NCBI GenBank assembly: GCA_964586785.1
Contig: CAZPHS010000004.1
Coordinates: 37,305-101,304 of the forward strand
Direction of reading: 5' to 3'
DNA from: an uncultured Christensenellaceae bacterium
Lineage (GTDB): Bacteria > Bacillota > Clostridia > Christensenellales > SZUA-584
Length of the DNA: 64,000 bases
The position numbers and the translations under genes were made by a program. Below the pieces are notes generated by a model. The model saw nothing but the letters and a program-made list of their open reading frames with translations, ran no database searches and was not told where the DNA came from. This document shows, one piece after another, positions 3,921 to 35,613 of the stretch. The first letter of the stretch is position 1. Every line of letters begins with the position of its first letter.

Positions 3921-6059
3921 ATGACTGATATATCTTCAAGGCTTGCGGAAGAGCTTTCGATTGCAAAAGAGCAGGCGCAAAGCGCGGTATCTCTTATTGA
4001 ACAGGGCAACACGGTGCCATTTATCGCGCGTTACAGAAAAGAGGCAACCGGCAATCTTTCCGACGAATTACTGCGCCGTCTTGCCGACAGGCTGGAATAT
4101 TTAACAAGGCTTGACGGGCGCAAAAGTGAGGTTATGCGCCTTATTGACGCGCAGGGCAAGCTTACGGAGGAGCTTAAAAAAAGTATATCGGAGGCGCGGG
4201 GCATAACAGAGGTTGACGATTTATACCGTCCGTACAGACCGAAACGGCGCACACGCGCCGCTATGGCAAAAGAAAAAGGCTTAGAGCCTTTAGCCGCGCT
4301 TATATTCGAACAGCAAACAGCGGACGAGCAAATAGACAAAATTGCGCAAGGGTATGTAAACAAGGAAAAGAATGTCGCCACGGCGGAGGAAGCGGTGCAA
4401 GGCGCTCTTGATATAATAGCCGAGAGGATAGCGGACGACGCGGCGGCGAGAAGCCTGCTTCGCTCCTGGCTTAAGCAAGGGAGCAGCATAATATCAAAGG
4501 CGGATGAGGAAAAAAGCGGCGTATACGAAATGTACAGCGATTTCTCCGAGCCGGTCAAAAAAATTGTTCCGCACAGGGTGCTTGCGTTAAACCGCGGCGA
4601 AAAAGAAAAAATATTAAGCATAAAGCTTTCGGCGGAGCATAACGAGGCGCAGGCGCTAATTGATAAGGCGTTATCACTCGCCGGCCAACGCAGCCGGTAT
4701 TTGCGCCAATCCGCGGACGACGCGTATAAAAGGCTTATTTTTCCGTCGCTGGAGCGCGAGATACGAAACGAGCTTACCGAAAAAGCCGAGGAGCAGGCAA
4801 TACGTGTTTTCGGTGTTAACCTTAAAAATCTGCTTTTGTCTCCTCCGGTGCGCGGCAAAACAGTACTGGGGCTTGACCCCGGATACCGCACAGGCAACAA
4901 GGCCGCCGTTGTGGACGAAACGGGGCGCGTGCTGGATACCGCCGTTATTTATATGACGCTTCCCCATCACGACATGGAAAAAGCTAAAAAACAGCTTGCG
5001 TCTCTTATAGAAAAACACAATGTTGATATAATAGCGATAGGAAACGGTACGGCTTCAAAGGAAAGCGAAGCGGCGGTGGCGCTGCTTTTAAAAGAGATAA
5101 AAAGAAAAGTTTATTACGCTATAGTCAGCGAAGCCGGCGCTTCGGTTTATTCCGCTTCCGCTCTTGGGACAGATGAGTTCCCCGATTTCGATGTCGCGCT
5201 GCGAAGCGCGGTTTCCATAGCGCGGAGGCTGCAGGACCCTCTTGCCGAGCTTGTAAAGATAGACCCGAAAGCCATAGGCGTCGGTCAGTATCAGCACGAC
5301 GTAAACCAAAAGCGGCTCGCGCAGACGCTTGCCGGCGCCGTTGAAGACTGTGTGAACACGGTCGGCGTGGATTTAAACACGGCTTCCGCGTCGCTTTTAA
5401 AATACGTGGCGGGCATAACGCCGTCCGCGGCGTCGGGCATAGTCTTCTACCGCGAAACGCACGGGCGTTTTACGAGCCGGCGGCAGCTTAAAAAGGTTAA
5501 AGGGTTAGGCGGCAAAGCGTTCGAGCAGTGCGCCGGTTTTCTTCGAATATCCGACGCTGAAAATGTGCTTGATTCCACCGCCATACACCCCGAATCTTAC
5601 GGCGCGGTGGATAAGCTTTCGCAAACGGCGGGCATAAAGCTTAAGACTAAAGAAGATTTACCGCGGCTTTTACAGCGGCTTTCGGGAATGGATTTTAACG
5701 CGCTTGCCAAGGAAGCGGGTATAGGCGAGCCGACCTTGCGCGACATAATAGACGAGCTTAAAAAACCGGGCAGGGACCCGCGGGACGCGTTCGAGCAGCC
5801 GGAGCTTAGAAGCGATATTATGCGCCTAGAGGATATTAAAGAAGGCATGGCGCTGTCCGGCACGGTGCGCAACGTAACGGATTTCGGCGCTTTTGTCGAT
5901 ATAGGCGTCCATCAGGACGGGCTTGTCCACATATCCCAAATGTCCGATAAGTTTATAAAGCACCCTTCGGACGCGGTTAAAACCGGAGATGTTGTAAAAG
6001 TTAAAGTAATAGGTATTGATATCGCTAAAAAGAGGATATCGCTTACAATGAAAATATAG
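3921..6059 (+). CDS. tex: Tex-like transcription accessory protein
   Basis: 712 aa. YqgF/RuvC-like segment VLGLDPGYRTGNKAAVVD and C-terminal S1 domain GTVRNVTDFGAFVDIGVHQDGLVHISQM. RBS AAGGAG upstream. Confidence 0.9.
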   Translation: MTDISSRLAEELSIAKEQAQSAVSLIEQGNTVPFIARYRKEATGNLSDELLRRLADRLEYLTRLDGRKSEVMRLIDAQGKLTEELKKSISEARGITEVDDLYRPYRPKRRTRAAMAKEKGLEPLAALIFEQQTADEQIDKIAQGYVNKEKNVATAEEAVQGALDIIAERIADDAAARSLLRSWLKQGSSIISKADEEKSGVYEMYSDFSEPVKKIVPHRVLALNRGEKEKILSIKLSAEHNEAQALIDKALSLAGQRSRYLRQSADDAYKRLIFPSLEREIRNELTEKAEEQAIRVFGVNLKNLLLSPPVRGKTVLGLDPGYRTGNKAAVVDETGRVLDTAVIYMTLPHHDMEKAKKQLASLIEKHNVDIIAIGNGTASKESEAAVALLLKEIKRKVYYAIVSEAGASVYSASALGTDEFPDFDVALRSAVSIARRLQDPLAELVKIDPKAIGVGQYQHDVNQKRLAQTLAGAVEDCVNTVGVDLNTASASLLKYVAGITPSAASGIVFYRETHGRFTSRRQLKKVKGLGGKAFEQCAGFLRISDAENVLDSTAIHPESYGAVDKLSQTAGIKLKTKEDLPRLLQRLSGMDFNALAKEAGIGEPTLRDIIDELKKPGRDPRDAFEQPELRSDIMRLEDIKEGMALSGTVRNVTDFGAFVDIGVHQDGLVHISQMSDKFIKHPSDAVKTGDVVKVKVIGIDIAKKRISLTMKI

Positions 6060-14773: not shown

Positions 14774-14930
14774 GCGCTCCACCCCCATTTTAATTGATAT
14801 GCGCACAAAAGCGCCGGAATACGGCATTAAAAACTTTTGGGCGGCAAATATATATGCGTTTTATGAGACAATATTAATTGTGCGACACCAAAACTTTTAG
14901 GTATTCATAAAATATCTTCGGGGGGCTTAA

Positions 14931-15176
14931 ATGGGAGACATAATTGACAGTGAAAATTTGGCCTTGCTGATTCCGCTGTTTGCAATATATACAAAAAGGT
15001 CAATAAACGACCCCGCAAAGGCGTCTGTAATCGGGGAATGGGTTTCCGCGTTCGGAGATACTTTGTCCGCCATGGCCGATACCGACACATTCATACGGCA
15101 AAAAGAAGAGGAAAAAAAGAAAATAATAAAGGAAATAGACGAGCTGCAAAAAAAGCTGGCCGAACTGAATAAATAA
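14931..15176 (+). CDS. small hypothetical protein with Lys/Glu-rich C-terminal helix
   Basis: 81-aa ORF with a G-rich RBS and a tail QKEEEKKKIIKEIDELQKKLAELNK. No family recognised. Confidence 0.3.
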   Translation: MGDIIDSENLALLIPLFAIYTKRSINDPAKASVIGEWVSAFGDTLSAMADTDTFIRQKEEEKKKIIKEIDELQKKLAELNK

Positions 15177-15238
15177 TATTAAGCTAACGGCAAGTCAGAT
15201 TATCCCGCCTGTAAGAATATTAGTAATGTGTTTTAATA

Positions 15239-15267
15239 TTGACATAGGTGTATTGCTTTGGTATTAT
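15239..15267 (+). promoter_or_regulatory. sigma-A-type promoter for the vanZ-like gene
   Basis: TTGACA - 17 nt - TATTAT. Confidence 0.5.
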
Positions 15268-15334
15268 ACGCCTGTGTTTGGGTGTCAATGGGAGGAAGGT
15301 TTATAAGTATAACAACTAAATTCCAGGAGTCAAT

Positions 15335-15830
15335 ATGAGAAAATTTATTAATATATTTATAAAAGTCAGCCTTGTTGTATACATAGCATTTATTATTTAC
15401 GCTATGTTTATTAAAAGCAGAGGACACTGGAGCGATATGCCTTTAAAAGATTATCTGCTGTTTCAGTCTAATTTTATTCCATTTAAAACAATCATATTTT
15501 ACATAAACTCAATTTTTGACGGAAGCATTAAACCTCGATATACCTGTATTAAATATAAGCGCCAACCTTTTGATGTTTCTGCCGGCGGGTATATATTTGC
15601 CCTATTATGTGAAACGGATTAAAACATTAAAGAGCTGCGCGGCAACGATGCTTATTATATTGATCTTTATAGAACTGATTCAATTCTTAACAAGAAGAGG
15701 AAGCTTTGATATTGATGATTTAATACTTAATATGTTGGGTGTCGTTATAGGCTATATGATATGGAAAATTAAATTTGTTCAAAGGCTGTTAAAAGGCGAT
15801 ATCACCGCCAACGAACAGCCTTCAACATAA
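15335..15830 (+). pseudogene. VanZ-like membrane protein split by a frameshift
   Basis: ORF 15335..15622 carries the N-terminal TM and the NFIPF motif. ORF 15516..15830, in another frame, carries NLLMFLPAG and GSFDIDDLILNMLGVVIGY. The frames overlap around a T5 run at about 15513-15517. Confidence 0.55.
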
Positions 15831-21889: not shown

Positions 21890-23350
21890 TTAATCTAAAA
21901 AGCCTCCCAGCAGATATCTTTCCATACCGCCGCCGTTTTTGCCGCGCTTGCCGAAAGGCTCGCGCATATCCGTACAGCCCGCGGCGGGCTCCAACTGCCT
22001 TCTTGAGCACCAGTAGCGAAGCGCGTCCGGACTGTGGGTTATATCGTGAGGTTCGGTTGAGGCGTCCCCCGCCCGAAGCTTGTCATACCGCAGAAGGGGC
22101 AGACAGCGCAGCAAAGGCGCGCAGGTGGAAAAAATGACAAGACGGGGGCTCCCGCGCGAAACGCTTAAATATTCTTTCACGTTAAGCCACCCGTCTATAC
22201 GGCTGCTGCCGGCCTTTACAAGCGGCACGCCGTTTTGCGCGAATATCTCGGCGGCGCTGCGTCCGGTATCCTGCCTGCGGTTCCACATATCCGGCGGCGC
22301 TATATATTCCTCCACATTCTCGCACTGCGATTTTTTTATAACCTCTGCCGCTTCGGACACGGTCAAATCGGCGCGTTCTATGCTTCGGTAGCAATATGCC
22401 CGTCCGTCCTCGTCCACCGCGAACCAAAGCACCGCCAGCATATCAAGCCCGTAGTCAAGCGCGGCGCTTTTTCTCCAGCCGGGAGGCAGCGCGAAAGGCT
22501 CCGTTACGTGCGCTTTTTCGCTAAACTCACTGAAAAACTGTCCGGCAAACACATTCCAGTCACCGTCAAGCCACGCGCGCCGCAGCATAGTCGGGAAGCT
22601 TTGTAGCTGCCTTATATAATCGGCTCCCCGCATGGCACGCTCGTGAAGGGCTGTTTTTGAAAGCGTTCCGCCGTACTTTTTTTTAAGCTTGGCATACGTT
22701 TGCCTGTATCCCTCGTCGGACTCAAAAAGAGGCGCGTTATCATATACGCGCGCCTGTATAAAAACGTAATCGCGTCCGTTCTCGCCTCTCTTATAGTCCC
22801 TGTCTATAAAAAGCCGTTTTACCCACGCGTGACCTACGCCGCCCGGATTGCATGTTATATACGTGCGTTTTGGGTAGCCGCCGGTGCCCCTAACGCACGC
22901 GCAAAGCCAGGAAAACTGGTATTCCGTAAGCTGCGTCGCCTCATCTAAAAAGATTACGTCGTATTCCTGCCCCTGGTATTGAAGCACGTCGCCCTCGTCG
23001 CTGCAATAACCAAGTTTTATGCGCGAACCCCAAGGAAAAGTAAACGCCTTCTCCCCCTCGTTATATTTAGGCTGATAATGCGGCGGCAAATACGAATAAA
23101 CGGCCTTAAGCCGTTTCGTATGGTTTTCGTGCAGCTCCGGAAATGTACGCCGCACTATAAGCATCTGTATGCCGGGATAATAAAAAGCAAGGTACGTCGC
23201 TTTGGCGCGTATGGCGTGAGACTTTCCGCCTCCCTTTGCCCCGCCGTATCCTACAAACCGAGCACTCGCCAAAAGAAAAGCCTCCTGCTTTTTGGTCGGC
23301 TTCCCAAAAGCGCGCAGCAATATATTGTCTAAACCCATATTTTTTATCAT
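21890..23350 (-). CDS. phage terminase large subunit
   Basis: Walker A GGAKGGGKSH, Walker B DVIFLDEATQ and a C-terminal RNaseH-like nuclease with acidic motifs AALDYGLDM and HSPDALRY. The frame is intact at 486 aa. Confidence 0.85.
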   Translation of the reverse strand: MIKNMGLDNILLRAFGKPTKKQEAFLLASARFVGYGGAKGGGKSHAIRAKATYLAFYYPGIQMLIVRRTFPELHENHTKRLKAVYSYLPPHYQPKYNEGEKAFTFPWGSRIKLGYCSDEGDVLQYQGQEYDVIFLDEATQLTEYQFSWLCACVRGTGGYPKRTYITCNPGGVGHAWVKRLFIDRDYKRGENGRDYVFIQARVYDNAPLFESDEGYRQTYAKLKKKYGGTLSKTALHERAMRGADYIRQLQSFPTMLRRAWLDGDWNVFAGQFFSEFSEKAHVTEPFALPPGWRKSAALDYGLDMLAVLWFAVDEDGRAYCYRSIERADLTVSEAAEVIKKSQCENVEEYIAPPDMWNRRQDTGRSAAEIFAQNGVPLVKAGSSRIDGWLNVKEYLSVSRGSPRLVIFSTCAPLLRCLPLLRYDKLRAGDASTEPHDITHSPDALRYWCSRRQLEPAAGCTDMREPFGKRGKNGGGMERYLLGGFLD

Positions 23351-23376
23351 ATAAAAAAGCGCCCGTTTAAGGCGCT
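23351..23376 (-). terminator. rho-independent terminator after the ferredoxin gene, abutting the terL start codon
   Basis: Minus strand reads AGCGCC-ttaaacg-GGCGCT followed by TTTTTTAT and then the terL ATG. Confidence 0.65.
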
Positions 23377-23392
23377 TGCACTCCTTTTATAA

Positions 23393-23584
23393 TTAATCCT
23401 CAATACGTATCACTTCCACCGGACAGCCCTCGGCTGCCTCGGCCGCGCTGTCTTCCGATTCTTTGGGTATCTGCTCCGTTATCGTTTCCGCGGGGCCGTC
23501 GTCTCCCATACGGAAAACCTCGGGGCATACGTCCGCGCATAACCCGCACAATATACACCCGTCCCTGTCTATTATCGCTCTCAT
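23393..23584 (-). CDS. small [4Fe-4S]/[3Fe-4S] ferredoxin
   Basis: 63 aa with CILCGLCADVCP ... CP cluster motifs. Strong RBS GGGGAGGGGAAGG. Confidence 0.8.
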   Translation of the reverse strand: MRAIIDRDGCILCGLCADVCPEVFRMGDDGPAETITEQIPKESEDSAAEAAEGCPVEVIRIED

Positions 23585-23648
23585 ACCTTCCCCTCCCCTG
23601 CAGTCAAATTACTGGTAGTATTTCCTTTTGGCGTTTTGCTATTCACCG

Positions 23649-24089
23649 CTACCGCGCATATTTTTTTATACTTCCCAAATCAAAAGGAGGCATCGCGCGG
23701 GGACGGCAATCATCTCCCAATGCGCCCGTTATTTCAAGCTGTTTTAAACACAGCGAAGACGGTCTCTCGCTCTCCTCCCAATAGCGCTGAAGATGCAGCA
23801 AGCCCATTTGAGCGCACGCGGCAAGCCGCGGGTTGGGGACTGCGCAGCCAATATCCTCAATTCTAAAGTATCCTTCGCGCCAAAGATTAAGTCTTTCGCG
23901 CGTTATGCCAAGAGCGATGCACAAACCCGCGATACTGTATTTTCCCGCGTCGGCCGCGTCCTTAAGGTACGTATTAATCCGTTCGGCTATATTCTGTATA
24001 TCAACGTCCCAAGCCCCGTTTGCCTCAATCGTGTAATCGGTTTTTTCCTTTAAGCGGATACCGCTTATCCGGCTGTTTTGCTTTGCCAT
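23649..24089 (-). CDS. phage terminase small subunit (gp3/HTH-type)
   Basis: The segment YSIAGLCIALGITRERLNLWREGY resembles the HTH of small terminase/DNA-packaging gp3 proteins. Start at MAKQ with an AAGGAGA RBS. Positioned upstream of terL. Confidence 0.55.
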   Translation of the reverse strand: MAKQNSRISGIRLKEKTDYTIEANGAWDVDIQNIAERINTYLKDAADAGKYSIAGLCIALGITRERLNLWREGYFRIEDIGCAVPNPRLAACAQMGLLHLQRYWEESERPSSLCLKQLEITGALGDDCRPRAMPPFDLGSIKKYAR

Positions 24090-24263
24090 ACAAGTCTCCT
24101 TAAAACACAATCGCTGATAAAAGCTTAAATCAAAAACAAACTCCGCATCGCTCAAAAAAACAACGGGCTCTTGTTCTCACAAAAGCGCAAATATGGTATA
24201 CTTATAACATGCTTTTTTGCAGCGCAATAAATCCGCGTCCGCGGATTACGGAAGGAAGCTTAT

Positions 24264-25196
24264 TTGTCAGTTATCACTATATCAAGGCAGCAATGCAGCT
24301 TTGGAAACGAAATAGCCGCCTCACTGGCTCAAAAACTCGGGTTTTCGCTTATAACTCATGAAACGCTGCTTTCAGAATTTTTCGGGGACGCAAGCGCGCA
24401 CGAGCGTCACATGCTCACCGAAAGCGCCAAATTCTATTTAACGGAGAAAAATACCGGCATTACCTACTTGAGTCTTCTTATAAACAGGCTGCGCGAATAC
24501 ACGCAAAAAAACGATTGCGTTATGGTTGGGTTTGGCTCTCAGTCCATATTCGCCGGCGATAAAGACGCTTTGCACGTTAGGGTTTTCGCGCCCGACAATT
24601 TAAGATTAGAGCGGCTTAGGCGGCAGTACCGCGTATCCGAGCAACAAGCTTTAAAAATACTTGAAAAAACGGACAGGAAACAAAAAAGGTTTGTTTCCGC
24701 GCTGTTTGGCATATCCATAGCGGATGTCTCCCATTATCATATTATGCTCAACACCTGTATGCTTACCGTTGACGAGTGCGTAGCCGCCGTTATGGCCATG
24801 CACAGCCAGCGCGCCGTTATAGAGCGCATAGAAAACGAAACACAAAAGGGTGCGGCGCAGTGCCATCTTTCCGACGTCGCGCTGCTTAAAAACAAGTCCG
24901 AAGCAGAATTCGCCCGCCTTCTTGATATGTACCATATCGACTGGATTTACGAGCCTAAAACATTTCCGGTGGAATGGGACGCTTCCGGAAACGTAACTTC
25001 CGCGTTCAGTCCGGATTTTTATCTGCCCAAGTTTGACACGTATATTGAACTGACAACTATGAATCAAAAATATGTAACCGAAAAAAATAAAAAAGTTAAA
25101 AAGCTGCGCGAGCTTTATCCCGGCATCAATATAAAAATTGTTTATAAAAAAGATTTTCATTCCCTGCTCGGCCGCTTTTTTCCTAACGGAGAATAA
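24264..25196 (+). CDS. cytidylate-kinase-like family domain fused to a C-terminal PD-(D/E)xK-like domain
   Basis: The N-terminus ITISRQQCSFGNEIAASLAQKLGF resembles Cytidylate_kin2 with a degenerate P-loop. The C-terminus reads EAEFARLLDMYHIDWIYEPKTF...FSPDFYLPKFDTYIELTT. TTG start after GGAAGGAAG. Confidence 0.55.
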   Translation: MSVITISRQQCSFGNEIAASLAQKLGFSLITHETLLSEFFGDASAHERHMLTESAKFYLTEKNTGITYLSLLINRLREYTQKNDCVMVGFGSQSIFAGDKDALHVRVFAPDNLRLERLRRQYRVSEQQALKILEKTDRKQKRFVSALFGISIADVSHYHIMLNTCMLTVDECVAAVMAMHSQRAVIERIENETQKGAAQCHLSDVALLKNKSEAEFARLLDMYHIDWIYEPKTFPVEWDASGNVTSAFSPDFYLPKFDTYIELTTMNQKYVTEKNKKVKKLRELYPGINIKIVYKKDFHSLLGRFFPNGE

Positions 25197-25198
25197 AT

Positions 25199-25729
25199 AT
25201 GAACAGGCCGTATTACAAAAAAATAGCGTTCACGGAGCTGCAGCTAAAATCCCGCGCCGTGGAATTGGGCAATGATATATCAAAAGACTACGAAGGAAAA
25301 GAACTTGTTCTAATCGCGCTGCTAAAAGGTTCTCTTTATTTCTGCGCGGACTTAACACGCGCCATTTCCGTACCTTTAATGATAGATTTTATGTCCATAG
25401 GCGTTTACGCCTCCAACCAGTCGGGCATTGTGCGCATAACCAAAGACCTGGACATAGACATAACGGGCAAACACGTGCTGATAATAGAAGATATCGTCCG
25501 CACCGGCTTAACTTTAGGATACTTAGTGCAAAACCTTGAGGCGCGCCGGCCGGCAAGCGTTAAGGTATGCGCTTTATTTGTTAATCCAAACCAGCAGCTT
25601 ATAGACGTGCCGCTTGCATATACGGGTTTTACCGTGGCAAACGAATGGCTTATGGGCTACGGCATGGACGCGGGCGAAAAATGGCGCAACCTGCCATACG
25701 TTGTGGAAATCGAAAAAGGCATGAGCTGA
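25199..25729 (+). CDS. hpt: hypoxanthine phosphoribosyltransferase
   Basis: 176 aa with PRPP-binding motif VLIIEDIVRTGLT. Confidence 0.9.
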   Translation: MNRPYYKKIAFTELQLKSRAVELGNDISKDYEGKELVLIALLKGSLYFCADLTRAISVPLMIDFMSIGVYASNQSGIVRITKDLDIDITGKHVLIIEDIVRTGLTLGYLVQNLEARRPASVKVCALFVNPNQQLIDVPLAYTGFTVANEWLMGYGMDAGEKWRNLPYVVEIEKGMS

Positions 25730-26434
25730 TTTTGCCGCCGCGCCGAATGCGCTCTTTCGCGCGGTTTGCGAAACTCATACAGTCTTATCCGTGATTATTT
25801 TTGGAATATAAAGAAGCTCCAGCGAACCCTCATTCAAGCGCTTGCCTTAGCGTCAACTCATTGTGCAAATTTTTCAAGCTTTCCGCCGCCGGCCCTGAAT
25901 CTATCAAATCCATCTCTGCCGCGGCCTGCGCGTCCGTTTATGCTTTGGCCTTCGCCTCAGACATCACTTTTGCGCATACCCGCTTTTAAGACTTCTTTTC
26001 AAAACCCTTGCCCGCGTGTCCGGCCTGCTCCAAGCTACATCGCCTAGCTTTCGCTCTGCTTTTGCCTGTCGCATTTGCCCACCGCACTAAAGTGCGTCGA
26101 CTCTCCGCTAGAGGTTAGAAGCGCTCCCCTTCGGTATTCCCTGGAGCGTACGAGTACTATAACACATTGTATCTGCATACACAACCCTTAAAATCCGCCA
26201 CAAAACGTCGATACGCGTCAACCTCGTACACAACGTCCCTAAAATCCCCTATTATCTTTCGCTATCTGAAATCTTCGCTGTATTTCGCTGTTATCCATTA
26301 TTATCTGTCACAATAAATAGAATTACGTATTTTTTATAAATTATAAAAAGGAATTGGGCATAGCGGTTTAGAATATATAATATGCGTATACGAATTTATC
26401 GATACGCGTTAATAAAATTTTAAGGAGAATACAT

Positions 26435-26920
26435 ATGCCAGGATACTATGGTTACTACAATCCGCTTGAGTCTATTAACACTATAATGTTGGTCTGTTTC
26501 ATACTTTCGCTTATATCGGCGATAGTGCTTCTTGCGGCGTTCTTGCCCAAAAGCAAACAGAACCGTTACTCCGGTTTTACGAAATCTGTTTATAACTTTT
26601 TAAACTTCCAATCTTTTTGGATCTCGCCCATAATAAAGCTGATGTACATGACGCTGGCCTTTACTTTGGTGCTGTCGGGTCTTATCATTTTATTTATCTT
26701 GCCCCTTTACGGACTGATACTTTTGGTTGCCGGCATACTCATCCGTCTGTTTTTTGAGACAGGCTATATATTGTATGCCATACTCGATCAGCTTAAAATA
26801 CTAAACGGCAAATCCACTGTACCAAAACCCTTTGCCGCCGCGCCCCCTATATGCCCTAATTGCGGAAAACCCGCAAACGCGGGCGAATCGTTTTGCAATG
26901 GCTGCGGCACAAAGATATAG
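26435..26920 (+). CDS. membrane protein with C-terminal zinc ribbon
   Basis: Three or four TM helices, then CPNCGKPANAGESFCNGCGTKI. RBS AAGGAG. Confidence 0.65.
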   Translation: MPGYYGYYNPLESINTIMLVCFILSLISAIVLLAAFLPKSKQNRYSGFTKSVYNFLNFQSFWISPIIKLMYMTLAFTLVLSGLIILFILPLYGLILLVAGILIRLFFETGYILYAILDQLKILNGKSTVPKPFAAAPPICPNCGKPANAGESFCNGCGTKI

Positions 26921-27114
26921 TTTTTATATGATTTAAAGAGACGGCATAGATGTTTGTATATAAATGCCGTATCTGCGCATAATAAAAATAAGAGGTGGAA
27001 AAGGAAATGTTTTTACATGGACTTGACTTCTCGCACAGTAATCCGGATATAAATGATGCTTTGTTTAGTCCGGGCGACTGAATGCCTTCAAACGCTGTAT
27101 GCTTTTGGAGGGAT

Positions 27115-27146
27115 AGAACGGGCCTGGCGCCCGTTCTGTTTTTTTG
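27115..27146 (+). terminator. rho-independent terminator with no annotated gene upstream
   Basis: AGAACGGGC-ctggc-GCCCGTTCT followed by GTTTTTTT. Confidence 0.7.
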
Positions 27147-27270
27147 GCGTAAAATTACACCCAACGCAGGGCAGCCCTCCTGACTTAAGCCCGTCATTTT
27201 CTTTATCAGCGGGTGAACCCGAGTTAAATGACCGCTACCAGCTACAACCATAAAAAACCACAAAAAAATA

Positions 27271-27300
27271 TTGACTAGTCCCCCGACTATATTGTATATA
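27271..27300 (+). promoter_or_regulatory. sigma-A-type promoter for the 64-aa zinc-ribbon gene
   Basis: TTGACT followed 17-18 nt later by a TGTATATA region. Confidence 0.45.
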
Positions 27301-27344
27301 GTATATAAGTCTACACTTATCCAAACAATTCAGGAGGTTTTTTT

Positions 27345-27539
27345 ATGGCACTTATTAAATGTCCCGAATGTAATAACGACATATCAAGTGAAGCTATCGC
27401 CTGTCCGCACTGCGGGAAAACGCTCGCAAAAGGAAAACACTGCCCGATGTGTTCTTCGTTCGATGTGGGCAGGATCGGGGTTTCGTTTCAGAAATTCCCG
27501 AAAACATATAAATGCAAGACATGCGGGTATAAATGGTAA
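27345..27539 (+). CDS. small double zinc-ribbon protein
   Basis: 64 aa with CPECN...CPHCG and CPMC...CKTCG pairs. RBS AGGAGG. Confidence 0.7.
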   Translation: MALIKCPECNNDISSEAIACPHCGKTLAKGKHCPMCSSFDVGRIGVSFQKFPKTYKCKTCGYKW

Positions 27540-27593: not shown

Positions 27594-27623
27594 TTATGCA
27601 AAGCTTCCGCTTTCCCGGCTTAA

Positions 27624-28454
27624 CTAAAACGCTATTATTATTCCGCCTTCGTTGGCGTACATGCCAGTTAATCCATGCGTCGGCGCAATAACAATATCCT
27701 TAAAACAATATTTTTCCTCTATAATTTCTATTAATCTGGCCGCCTTTTCCGCCGCGTTGCAATGCGTTATTGCCAATATACGTTCTTTTGTGTCTTTATA
27801 CACTTCTCCGATTGTGTCAGCCAGCTTTTTAATTGAGTTGTTTGAACCCCTTACCCTTGAAAACAAGGCTATCTCTCCGTTTTCATCCCCTTTTAATATA
27901 GGCCGGATATTTAATACCTCCGCGATTATACCGGCGACCTTGCTCATCCTGCCGTTTTTTATCAGGTTTTCCAAGCTGTCAAGCACAAAAAAAGTCTTCA
28001 TTTTGTCTATAAAATGTTCTATTTTATTTATTATATCCGCCTTTTCAATTCCGGCGTTTATCAGTTCCTTAAGCTTTTTAACTATAAGCAATTGCCCCGC
28101 CGAAGCGCTTTTCGAGTCAAACACATACGATTCGATTCCTTGCTCCAAAAGCATTCCTTTGGCTATATTGGCGCTGCCGTAGGAACCCGATAGCTTTGAC
28201 GAAAGCGTAACAATAAAATTTATAACCCCTTTGCTGCACCTGTCGATAAAATCCTGCGGCGAAGGACAGGATGATTTAGGCTGGCCTTTATACTCATGCA
28301 TTTGTGATAGAAAATCATCGGCGTCCAACGTATCGTTATCAACAAACGTTTTGTTCCCCAAAATCATTGAAAGCGGCACTATTTCCACACCCAGCTCTTT
28401 CTTAAGCTCCAAGGTTACGTCACATCCGCTGTCCGCCACTATTTTATAATTCAT
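27624..28454 (-). CDS. DegV family fatty-acid-binding protein
   Basis: MNYKIVADSGCD N-terminus and ~277 aa, typical of DegV. Internal Met chosen (GAGGGCGG RBS). Confidence 0.85.
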   Translation of the reverse strand: MNYKIVADSGCDVTLELKKELGVEIVPLSMILGNKTFVDNDTLDADDFLSQMHEYKGQPKSSCPSPQDFIDRCSKGVINFIVTLSSKLSGSYGSANIAKGMLLEQGIESYVFDSKSASAGQLLIVKKLKELINAGIEKADIINKIEHFIDKMKTFFVLDSLENLIKNGRMSKVAGIIAEVLNIRPILKGDENGEIALFSRVRGSNNSIKKLADTIGEVYKDTKERILAITHCNAAEKAARLIEIIEEKYCFKDIVIAPTHGLTGMYANEGGIIIAF

Positions 28455-35237: not shown

Positions 35238-35284
35238 AATGCTCTATCCTTTCTGCGCTTTGTTTTGTTAAAGCCTGCCAATAT

Positions 35285-35550
35285 AAAAAAGCCGCATACT
35301 CCTTCGAATAAAATGAAGAGACGCAGCTGTTTCTTACAACTTCGCGGTACCACTCAACTTGTCTTTTTGCAAAGACCGCTTTAAGGCTCTGTCAAGCCCA
35401 TCATCTTTAACGGAATTACCCGGCCATGTCTACTTTGTTCGACACGCGGCTCCGGAGGGATTCGCATGATACCGCGCCGCCGGCTCGCACCAACCGCAGG
35501 CTCTCTTAAAGCGCTTTGTACCCCGCCTGTCTCCATCTGCACCTTTATTA
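35285..35550 (-). promoter_or_regulatory. T-box riboswitch leader of the ilv operon
   Basis: Minus strand carries AGAGAG (35501-35506), distal-loop GGUUGGUG (35488-35495), T-box AAGUUGAGUGGUACCGCGAA (35341-35360) and a terminator GCUGCGUCUCUUC-loop-GAAGGAGUAUGCGGC plus U6 (35285-35327). Confidence 0.85.
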
Positions 35551-35556
35551 CACCCG

Positions 35557-35585
35557 ATATTAACAAACTAAATCGGCTTTGTCAA
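35557..35585 (-). promoter_or_regulatory. sigma-A-type promoter of the ilv leader
   Basis: TTGACA - 17 nt - TAATAT on the minus strand. Confidence 0.6.
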
Positions 35586-35613
35586 CAAAATAATTGCAAT
35601 ATACATACAATTG

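Follow-up and report, generated by a model that had tools for sequence, protein, structure and literature searches.

The 64,000-nucleotide (nt) stretch of uncultured Christensenellaceae DNA analyzed here (contig CAZPHS010000004.1, hereafter 'the window') contains a 705-nt interval without a credible open reading frame (ORF) at 25730–26434, between hpt (25199–25729, plus strand) and an ORF of 161 aa. Within this interval, the minus strand from 26149 to 25805 is probably a gene in its own right, encoding a structured non-coding RNA (ncRNA) of ~345 nt from a hitherto undescribed family. An earlier prediction, made from the letters of the window alone, had proposed an unannotated structured ncRNA of 300–500 nt on this strand, and our analysis bears this out through homologues, a positioned promoter, a covarying fold that is specific to one strand, and a non-coding pattern. 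The largest 'empty' gap of the window most likely holds a gene of the sort that annotation pipelines miss. Taken together, a new ncRNA family of narrow distribution is the most likely interpretation.

A conserved element in the largest gene-free gap of the window

Gaps in the window have a median length of 74.5 nt and one other exceeds 400 nt, as ranked with a crude gene model of non-overlapping ORFs of at least 100 aa. The original prediction had stressed the unusual size of the interval and its lack of a credible ORF, and both points hold, as does the presence within it of two overlapping plus-strand ORFs of 93 and 62 aa. On base composition, its counts per line were close to ours (C/G of 19/9, 22/10, 19/7 and 20/5 on four 60-nt plus-strand lines), but a two- to threefold excess of C is only local: the core sense RNA has 34% G and 20% C, and C exceeds G ~1.7-fold on the plus strand. 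The strand skew is likewise real but not unusual. With a GC skew of −0.27 to −0.34 the stretch equals ordinary minus-strand genes here (e.g. 27600–28100), so the skew indicates the direction of transcription and is no anomaly by itself.

Contigs of relatives were fetched via Hpt homologues (79–91% identity to the window Hpt), and blastn of the region against these loci returned 72% identity over 392 nt to L005/L006. The L005/L006 copy is found 4 kb past hpt, where a gap of 577 nt without genes separates the gene of a 571-aa zinc-ribbon protein from an MFS transporter gene. The pattern GTCNGAGGCGAAGGCCNAAGC, taken from an invariant block, gave 30 matches among 185,579 species genomes, of which only L022 (Christensenellales bacterium AnMBR.bin221) is a full-length homologue (nhmmer E = 1.6e-45 with a two-sequence profile); by nhmmer, the other 29 are chance matches in GC-rich DNA. 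A scan of metagenomes returned the L005 contig plus one chance match (L012). Lastly, contigs fetched by a search for MFS homologues showed that L049 and L050 carry the element at full length (nhmmer).

There are thus five distinct copies, from the window, L049, L005, L050 and L022, representing Christensenellales lineages, and each lies in ORF-free DNA. All copies scored E = 1e-93 to 1e-105 against a five-sequence nhmmer profile. Their pairwise identity is 63–86%, with invariant blocks of 17–34 nt and flanks that cannot be aligned. A second copy was not found in the 64-kb window. The conserved element covers only ~345 of the 705 nt (25805–26149). The other bases comprise the probable terminator hairpin of hpt, a short spacer, the promoter, and intergenic DNA that is AT-rich and divergent (~240 nt).

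The minus strand has a conserved predicted fold

RNAalifold on the five sequences gave a consensus of 91 pairs in 14 helices at −68 kcal/mol, as opposed to −37 kcal/mol for the antisense strand, whose consensus has 48 pairs, only 5 of which are compensatory. Column shuffling that preserved conservation and gaps yielded z scores of −7.47 (sense) and −2.26 (antisense). In the alignment from which the sense structure was derived, 90.8% of cells were paired, compared to 86.3% in shuffles and 31–40% in slid controls, and 18 pairs were changed on both sides, compared to 8.8 ± 2.1 in shuffles (none of 500 reached 18) and 3–7 in slid controls. When the entire interval was folded as a single sequence, the z scores were modest, at −2.49 (minus strand) and −1.50 (plus strand); the core alone reached −3.72. 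The predicted secondary structure is conserved, specific to the minus strand, and backed by compensatory changes.

From the outside, the helices follow the order P1, a 6x6 internal loop, P1b, P2, HP1, P3, the closing helix of a variable arm, and an inner rod; P1, P1b, P2, HP1 and P3 appear in all five single-sequence minimum-free-energy (MFE) folds. The predicted parts of the RNA are as follows.

25805–26149, minus strand: predicted ncRNA of ~345 nt, the conserved core, from a putative start (about 26149–26151) to the U-rich tract past the closing helix; both ends are predicted
26128–26147, minus strand: 5′ strand of P1, GCUCCAG-G-GAAU-A-CC; invariant in the five sequences and present in all five MFE folds
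25816–25833, minus strand: 3′ strand of P1, GG-GUUC-G-CUGGAGC; invariant, followed by the U-rich tract (25803–25815)
26117–26126, minus strand: 5′ strand of P1b, GAGCGCUUCU; compensatory changes at four positions
25836–25845, minus strand: 3′ strand of P1b, GCAAGCGCUU; pairs with 26117–26126 across ~270 nt
26083–26096, minus strand: side hairpin HP1, CGCAC-UUUA-GUGCG; stem invariant in the five sequences, loop UUUA/UGA/AUC, CCGCAC/GUGCGG in relatives
26025–26075, minus strand: variable purine-rich arm with a covarying closing helix and a GC-GAAA-GC hairpin; its length differs by 8–13 nt between species
25936–25969, minus strand: apical hairpin at the tip of the rod, AAGUGAUGUC-N-GAGGCGAAGGCC-R-AAGCAUAAA; near-invariant, with 2 variable positions in 33 aligned columns

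P1 pairs 26147–26128 with 25833–25816 in 13 bp and shows no variation in the five sequences. P1b (8–10 bp) is compensatory at four positions (CG/UG/UA, GC/AU, CG/UA and AU/GC) in a hand-checked register, for which a one-base misalignment of L022 was corrected by hand. The apical hairpin supplied the pattern that recovered L022. Neither helix strand of P1 or of the apical hairpin varies in sequence, even though pairing would tolerate change, which suggests sequence-specific recognition.

Four local hairpins had been proposed originally. HP1 is among them and is real: it is conserved in the five homologues, with a variable loop. The other three did not survive the comparison, and several of the four fall outside the conserved fold. 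CUCU-5nt-AGAG (26101–26113) is unconserved (L049 has CUAU/ACAG), and AGCUA/UAGCU (26033–26049) sits in the variable arm. CGCUCC-15nt-GGAGCG (26122–26148) competes with P1/P1b, shows no compensatory changes, and erodes in L050 and L022; this hairpin may be a transient folding intermediate. Two tertiary motifs were considered and rejected. In the 6x6 loop that separates P1 from P1b, the tandem G-A signature of a K-turn is unconserved, and palindromic kissing loops as in OLE/GOLLD are not maintained, the junction GGCCGG being lost as a palindrome (GGUCGG in L050, CAUCAG in L022).

A predicted promoter precedes the conserved start

A sigma-70-type arrangement, TTGnnn - 17 nt - TAnAnT, occurs at the same aligned position in all five copies, and its end lies ~7 nt ahead of the conserved start in each. 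In the window, its two parts are:

26179–26184, minus strand: −35-like hexamer TTGTGT; TTGTGC, TTGAGA, TTGAAA and TTGAAA in the aligned relatives
26156–26164, minus strand: extended −10 element TGT-TATAGT, 17 nt past the −35; TAGAGT, TAAAGT, TAAAAT and TAAAGT in the relatives

A promoter scan called sites in L050 (TTGAAA/TAAAAT, 10/12), L022 (9/12) and L005 (9/12). Sequence conservation starts exactly at the −10 element, placing the putative RNA start at about 26149, and the RNA would be transcribed from its own promoter. At the other end, a U-rich run, UUCUUUAUAUU, follows the last helix (25803–25815), and 15–45 nt past this U-tract a strong hairpin, predicted to terminate transcription from both directions and common to the convergent gene, is present in four of the five copies. 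The RNA would end either at the U-tract past P1 or at the bidirectional terminator 15–45 nt further on. In the case of the terminator, trimming would then shorten the transcript as far as the protected P1 helix, as in stable RNAs with paired termini.

Two related ~25-nt blocks noted in the original prediction do exist (at about 26176–26199 and 26226–26250). Both precede the RNA start and belong to the promoter region, not to the RNA itself. We also noted a 14-nt direct repeat, TCGATACGCGT(C/T)AA, at 26208–26221 and 26399–26412 (identity 13/14). One copy is ~24 nt upstream of the −35 hexamer of the RNA, and the other is in the leader of the divergent 161-aa ORF, directly ahead of its ribosome-binding site. 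The pair could be a shared operator for the RNA and the 161-aa ORF.

The element does not evolve as a protein-coding sequence

Every pair of copies except window/L049 has at least 6 indels, the large majority for that pair, that are non-multiples of three; the corresponding figure for window/L049 is 2/4. On the sense strand there are 2–9 stops in each frame in each of the five species, and the variable columns lack 3-periodicity (60/54/51). Some antisense ORFs are long (93 and 62 aa in the window, 106 aa in L005, 96 and 64 aa in L022), but they cross the same conserved block in frames that differ between these species. They arise because the complement of a purine-rich sense strand (62–65% A+G in the five sequences) seldom spells a stop codon. 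By these sequence patterns, the element is non-coding on both strands.

The apical hairpin also spells, at 25938–25964 on the minus strand, an 8-codon ORF (AUG UCN GAG GCG AAG GCC RAA GCA UAA) in all five species. One of its two variable sites is synonymous, and no Shine-Dalgarno sequence lies ahead of it. This short ORF is probably a coincidence.

Gene neighborhood suggests a product acting in trans

In L049, L005, L050 and L022 the gene order is MFS, element, and a convergent large zinc-ribbon (ZnR) gene, with the element beginning 120–150 nt past the MFS stop on the same strand; hpt is nearby in L005 and L050. Neither the MFS gene nor the large ZnR gene was found anywhere in the 64 kb of the window. 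In all five copies, the next gene past the RNA 3′ end is on the opposite strand and convergent, namely hpt in the window and ZnR elsewhere. A riboswitch or 5′ leader was rejected since no same-strand gene lies downstream in any of the five genomes. This arrangement, together with the retention of the RNA and its promoter in the window after loss of MFS and ZnR, argues against a leader, riboswitch or untranslated region (UTR) and suggests that the RNA may act in trans. The ZnR proteins are 35–44% identical to one another (about 30–44% when L007 is included), compared to 79–91% for the Hpt proteins of those genomes to that of the window; the neighborhood therefore evolves fast while the RNA blocks remain invariant.

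Large ZnR genes: L005 7931–9646; L049 4011–5609; L050 5774–7501; L022 5842–7458; L007 5646–7169

These large neighbors carry a zinc ribbon at the N terminus, a linker rich in Pro and Gln, a probable membrane segment, and domains that are repeated within the protein. L007 has the large ZnR gene and not the RNA. In L022 the MFS gene (4027–5237) appears as two overlapping ORFs (78 aa and 361 aa), which may reflect a frameshift or an error in the assembly.

Comparison with known RNA families

Rfam 15 (4227 models, including 6S, SRP, RNase P, tmRNA, OLE, ROOL, GOLLD, raiA and HEARO) returned only a T-box at 35314–35548 when the whole window was searched at gathering score. At E ≤ 10, the segment 25600–26550 gave only a chance c-di-GMP-II match inside hpt, and the four homologue loci gave nothing on the element at E ≤ 5. 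The original prediction had likewise found no class to which the sequence could be assigned, and the searches of window and homologues agree with it. Text searches of the literature for the conserved strings of the element returned nothing relevant, and ARAGORN found no tRNA or tmRNA in 25000–27500. A CsrA sponge was considered and rejected, as 9 GGA motifs against ~11 expected from composition (hand count) represent no enrichment.

ROOL and GOLLD are phage- or prophage-encoded and often lie near tRNA islands; many GOLLD members exceed 800 nt, and a ROOL linker is numbered 414–464 (PMC12286853). Similar to OLE, ROOL, GOLLD and the raiA motif, the element would be a long, elaborately folded orphan ncRNA that was recognized in a gene-free gap by comparison. 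It is also purine-rich, comes from an anaerobic Clostridia-type host, and shares a conserved GNRA-type (GAAA/GGAA) hairpin, located in the variable arm. Unlike ROOL and GOLLD, it was not found in the viral and phage collections searched, has no tRNA nearby, and matches none of their Rfam models. It is also only ~345 nt long, compared to more than 800 nt for many GOLLD members; those RNAs have multiple pseudoknots, whereas in the element, which was not searched for them systematically, none were identified. Multimer-forming palindromic loops were not identified in it either.

The candidate RNA resembles 6S, Ms1, SRP and RNase P RNAs in its own predicted promoter, its stand-alone single-copy gene, its paired termini, its independence of a downstream gene, and a rod-like nested fold with a highly conserved apical hairpin at the tip. 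By contrast, it has no Rfam match, is ~345 nt long with a variable purine-rich side arm, and is limited to few lineages, being missing beside hpt or MFS in some close relatives, whereas 6S, Ms1, SRP and RNase P RNAs are, to our knowledge, universal. With small RNAs (sRNAs) that derive from 3′ UTRs and have internal promoters it shares the position just downstream of a same-strand MFS gene (4/5) and an own promoter. However, it is much longer and more structured than such sRNAs, shows no obvious single-stranded pyrimidine-rich seed, and is kept in the window without the upstream gene.

Alternative explanations

We considered whether the interval might instead be a decayed protein gene, derived from the PBP-family gene found after hpt in relatives or from some minus-strand gene since lost, in which case its conservation would reflect recent common ancestry only. 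A PBP-family gene (PF01161) of 217–246 aa does lie directly after hpt in L005/L006 and L008–L010, with a fragment in L003, the GC skew resembles that of local minus-strand coding genes, and an 87-aa minus-strand ORF lies inside the L005 element. However, four PBP proteins found no match within 25730–26434 by tblastn at E ≤ 10, and the DNA after hpt in PBP-bearing relatives did not align with the window. The PBP gene is thus intact after hpt in relatives, yet dissimilar to this DNA, and the true homologues in four lineages are ORF-free as well. The downstream side of hpt is a rearrangement hot spot. Furthermore, blocks of 17–34 nt have stayed invariant while the flanks diverged past alignment, indels disrupt every frame, sense stops fall in all frames of all five sequences, and neither a positioned promoter nor compensatory pairs are expected of a decayed gene. 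The relic suggested as an alternative by the original prediction is hence very improbable. An element acting in cis or antisense, that is, a long structured 3′ UTR or insulator of the MFS mRNA or else, on the plus strand, the 3′ UTR of whichever gene converges on it (hpt in the window, ZnR elsewhere), is unlikely. In its favor are the position 120–150 nt after the MFS stop on the same strand in four lineages, the bidirectional terminator shared with the convergent ZnR gene, and the 3′ end of a gene facing that of the element in every case. Nevertheless, the window retains the element and its promoter with neither MFS nor ZnR in 64 kb, the stretch from the MFS stop to the element contains conserved promoter hexamers, and the plus strand folds far worse (z of −2.26 against −7.47; 48 against 91 pairs). 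MFS orthologues of two neighboring clades, moreover, lack the element.

ROOL and GOLLD had originally prompted the idea that the element is left over from, or carried by, a prophage or other mobile element, on account of a phage packaging remnant nearby. The gene in question, a terminase large-subunit homologue (21890–23350, 486 aa, PF03237/PF04466), is present, the site downstream of hpt is prone to rearrangement, and the position of the element differs between genomes. However, the terminase gene belongs to a block (21890–25729) that also comprises a 63-aa ferredoxin, a 146-aa ORF, a divergent cytidylate-kinase-like (CK) gene and hpt, and the order terminase-ferredoxin-CK-hpt is kept in every relative examined (L003–L010, L013–L018). 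It is thus a stably syntenic chromosomal gene, which looks like a stably retained, possibly domesticated, terminase rather than part of a decaying prophage remnant. Blastn against 50,697 INPHARED phage records and against PLSDB plasmids gave no match, and three conserved patterns gave no true match in IMG/VR, where a single 17-mer match (L056, viral) was attributed to chance. The single copy in the window, the lack of a tRNA nearby, and the absence of terminal repeats from the sequence around the element argue in the same direction, and we regard a mobile origin as scarcely probable. A 6S/Ms1-like regulator, a rod-shaped mimic that binds RNA polymerase, was also considered. 6S RNA is a rod of ~180–200 nt with a closing stem, a large central bubble and a terminal stem, and binds the RNA polymerase holoenzyme; the 6S-like Ms1 of mycobacteria has ~300 nt. 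The candidate would share with them termini paired in a long interrupted helix, a rod-like architecture with internal loops, an own promoter, and a single copy. By contrast, it matches neither RF00013 nor any other model even at E ≤ 10, is nearly double the length of 6S, has a branched fold (HP1 and the variable arm) with no obvious large central bubble, and shows a strong sequence invariance in the apical hairpin that is not a 6S trait. We consider such a role quite unlikely.

Several observations weigh against an independent ncRNA gene. The element was found neither beside hpt in L007 and L013–L018 (Hpt-neighbor contigs) nor near MFS in the neighboring MFS clades L051–L055. Some close relatives thus lack it where synteny would place it (beside hpt in L007, L013 and L018; beside MFS in L051–L055), which implies that it is dispensable or mobile within the clade, and all five sequences come from a single narrow clade. 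Five sequences are too few for formally significant covariation, and since one alignment served both to derive the structure and to test it, the counts of paired cells and of doubly changed pairs are inflated. P1 contributes no covariation support because it never varies, and the interior helices 9, 10 and 12 are only 70–83% paired and are probably misaligned in L050 and L022. The start and end rest on promoter and U-tract patterns only. In the window and its closest relative, L049, the −35 element matches at only 3/6 positions, below the threshold of the scan, although both copies carry a TGn-extended −10. Lastly, the window copy lacks a recognizable terminator hairpin with U-run on the RNA strand, where only the hpt hairpin (25735–25775) is seen, and the position of its 3′ end is uncertain.

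Possible roles of the RNA

Our preferred mode of action, a stable protein-binding or scaffold RNA, is a guess, and one that we would sooner expect to fail than to hold. A 6S/Ms1-like role, base pairing, catalysis, or self-assembly may be further modes. Bacterial ncRNAs longer than ~300 nt with conserved elaborate folds are rare; those characterized in the past proved to act as ribozymes, to form the cores of ribonucleoproteins or, in recent examples, to assemble from RNA only. We see an about even chance that the element represents an unrecognized class of large RNA (~345 nt) that is highly structured, acts in trans, occurs only in one uncultured clade of Christensenellales, and has a partner or activity new among RNA families, of which the invariant closing helix and apical hairpin would be the mark. 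If so, it might form a dedicated ribonucleoprotein, or possibly catalyze a reaction or assemble with itself, as the ornate RNAs solved recently do. Given its size and its clean signatures of promoter and structure, such a new family would be a concrete, testable candidate from an uncultured, poorly studied order; its narrow distribution and unassigned function limit the immediate impact.

Flanking features and other gaps

Outside the conserved element, the 705-nt interval and its border contain the following.

25735–25775, plus strand: GC-rich hairpin, probably the hpt terminator; it abuts the hpt stop codon, is seen in folds, cannot be aligned with relatives, and lies outside the conserved RNA
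26165–26434, no strand: non-conserved, divergent intergenic DNA from the promoter to the 161-aa ORF; relatives have no homology more than ~50 nt upstream of the start
26435–26920, plus strand: zinc-ribbon membrane ORF of 161 aa, which bounds the 705-nt gap and diverges from the RNA

Elsewhere in the window, the second-largest ORF-free gap (14828–15515, 688 nt) contains only ORFs of 49–95 aa on both strands and has no Rfam match at gathering score. The T-box leader (RF00230) at 35314–35548 is on the minus strand, scored 93.8 bits against a gathering score of 93, and explains the 376-nt gap at 35238–35613.

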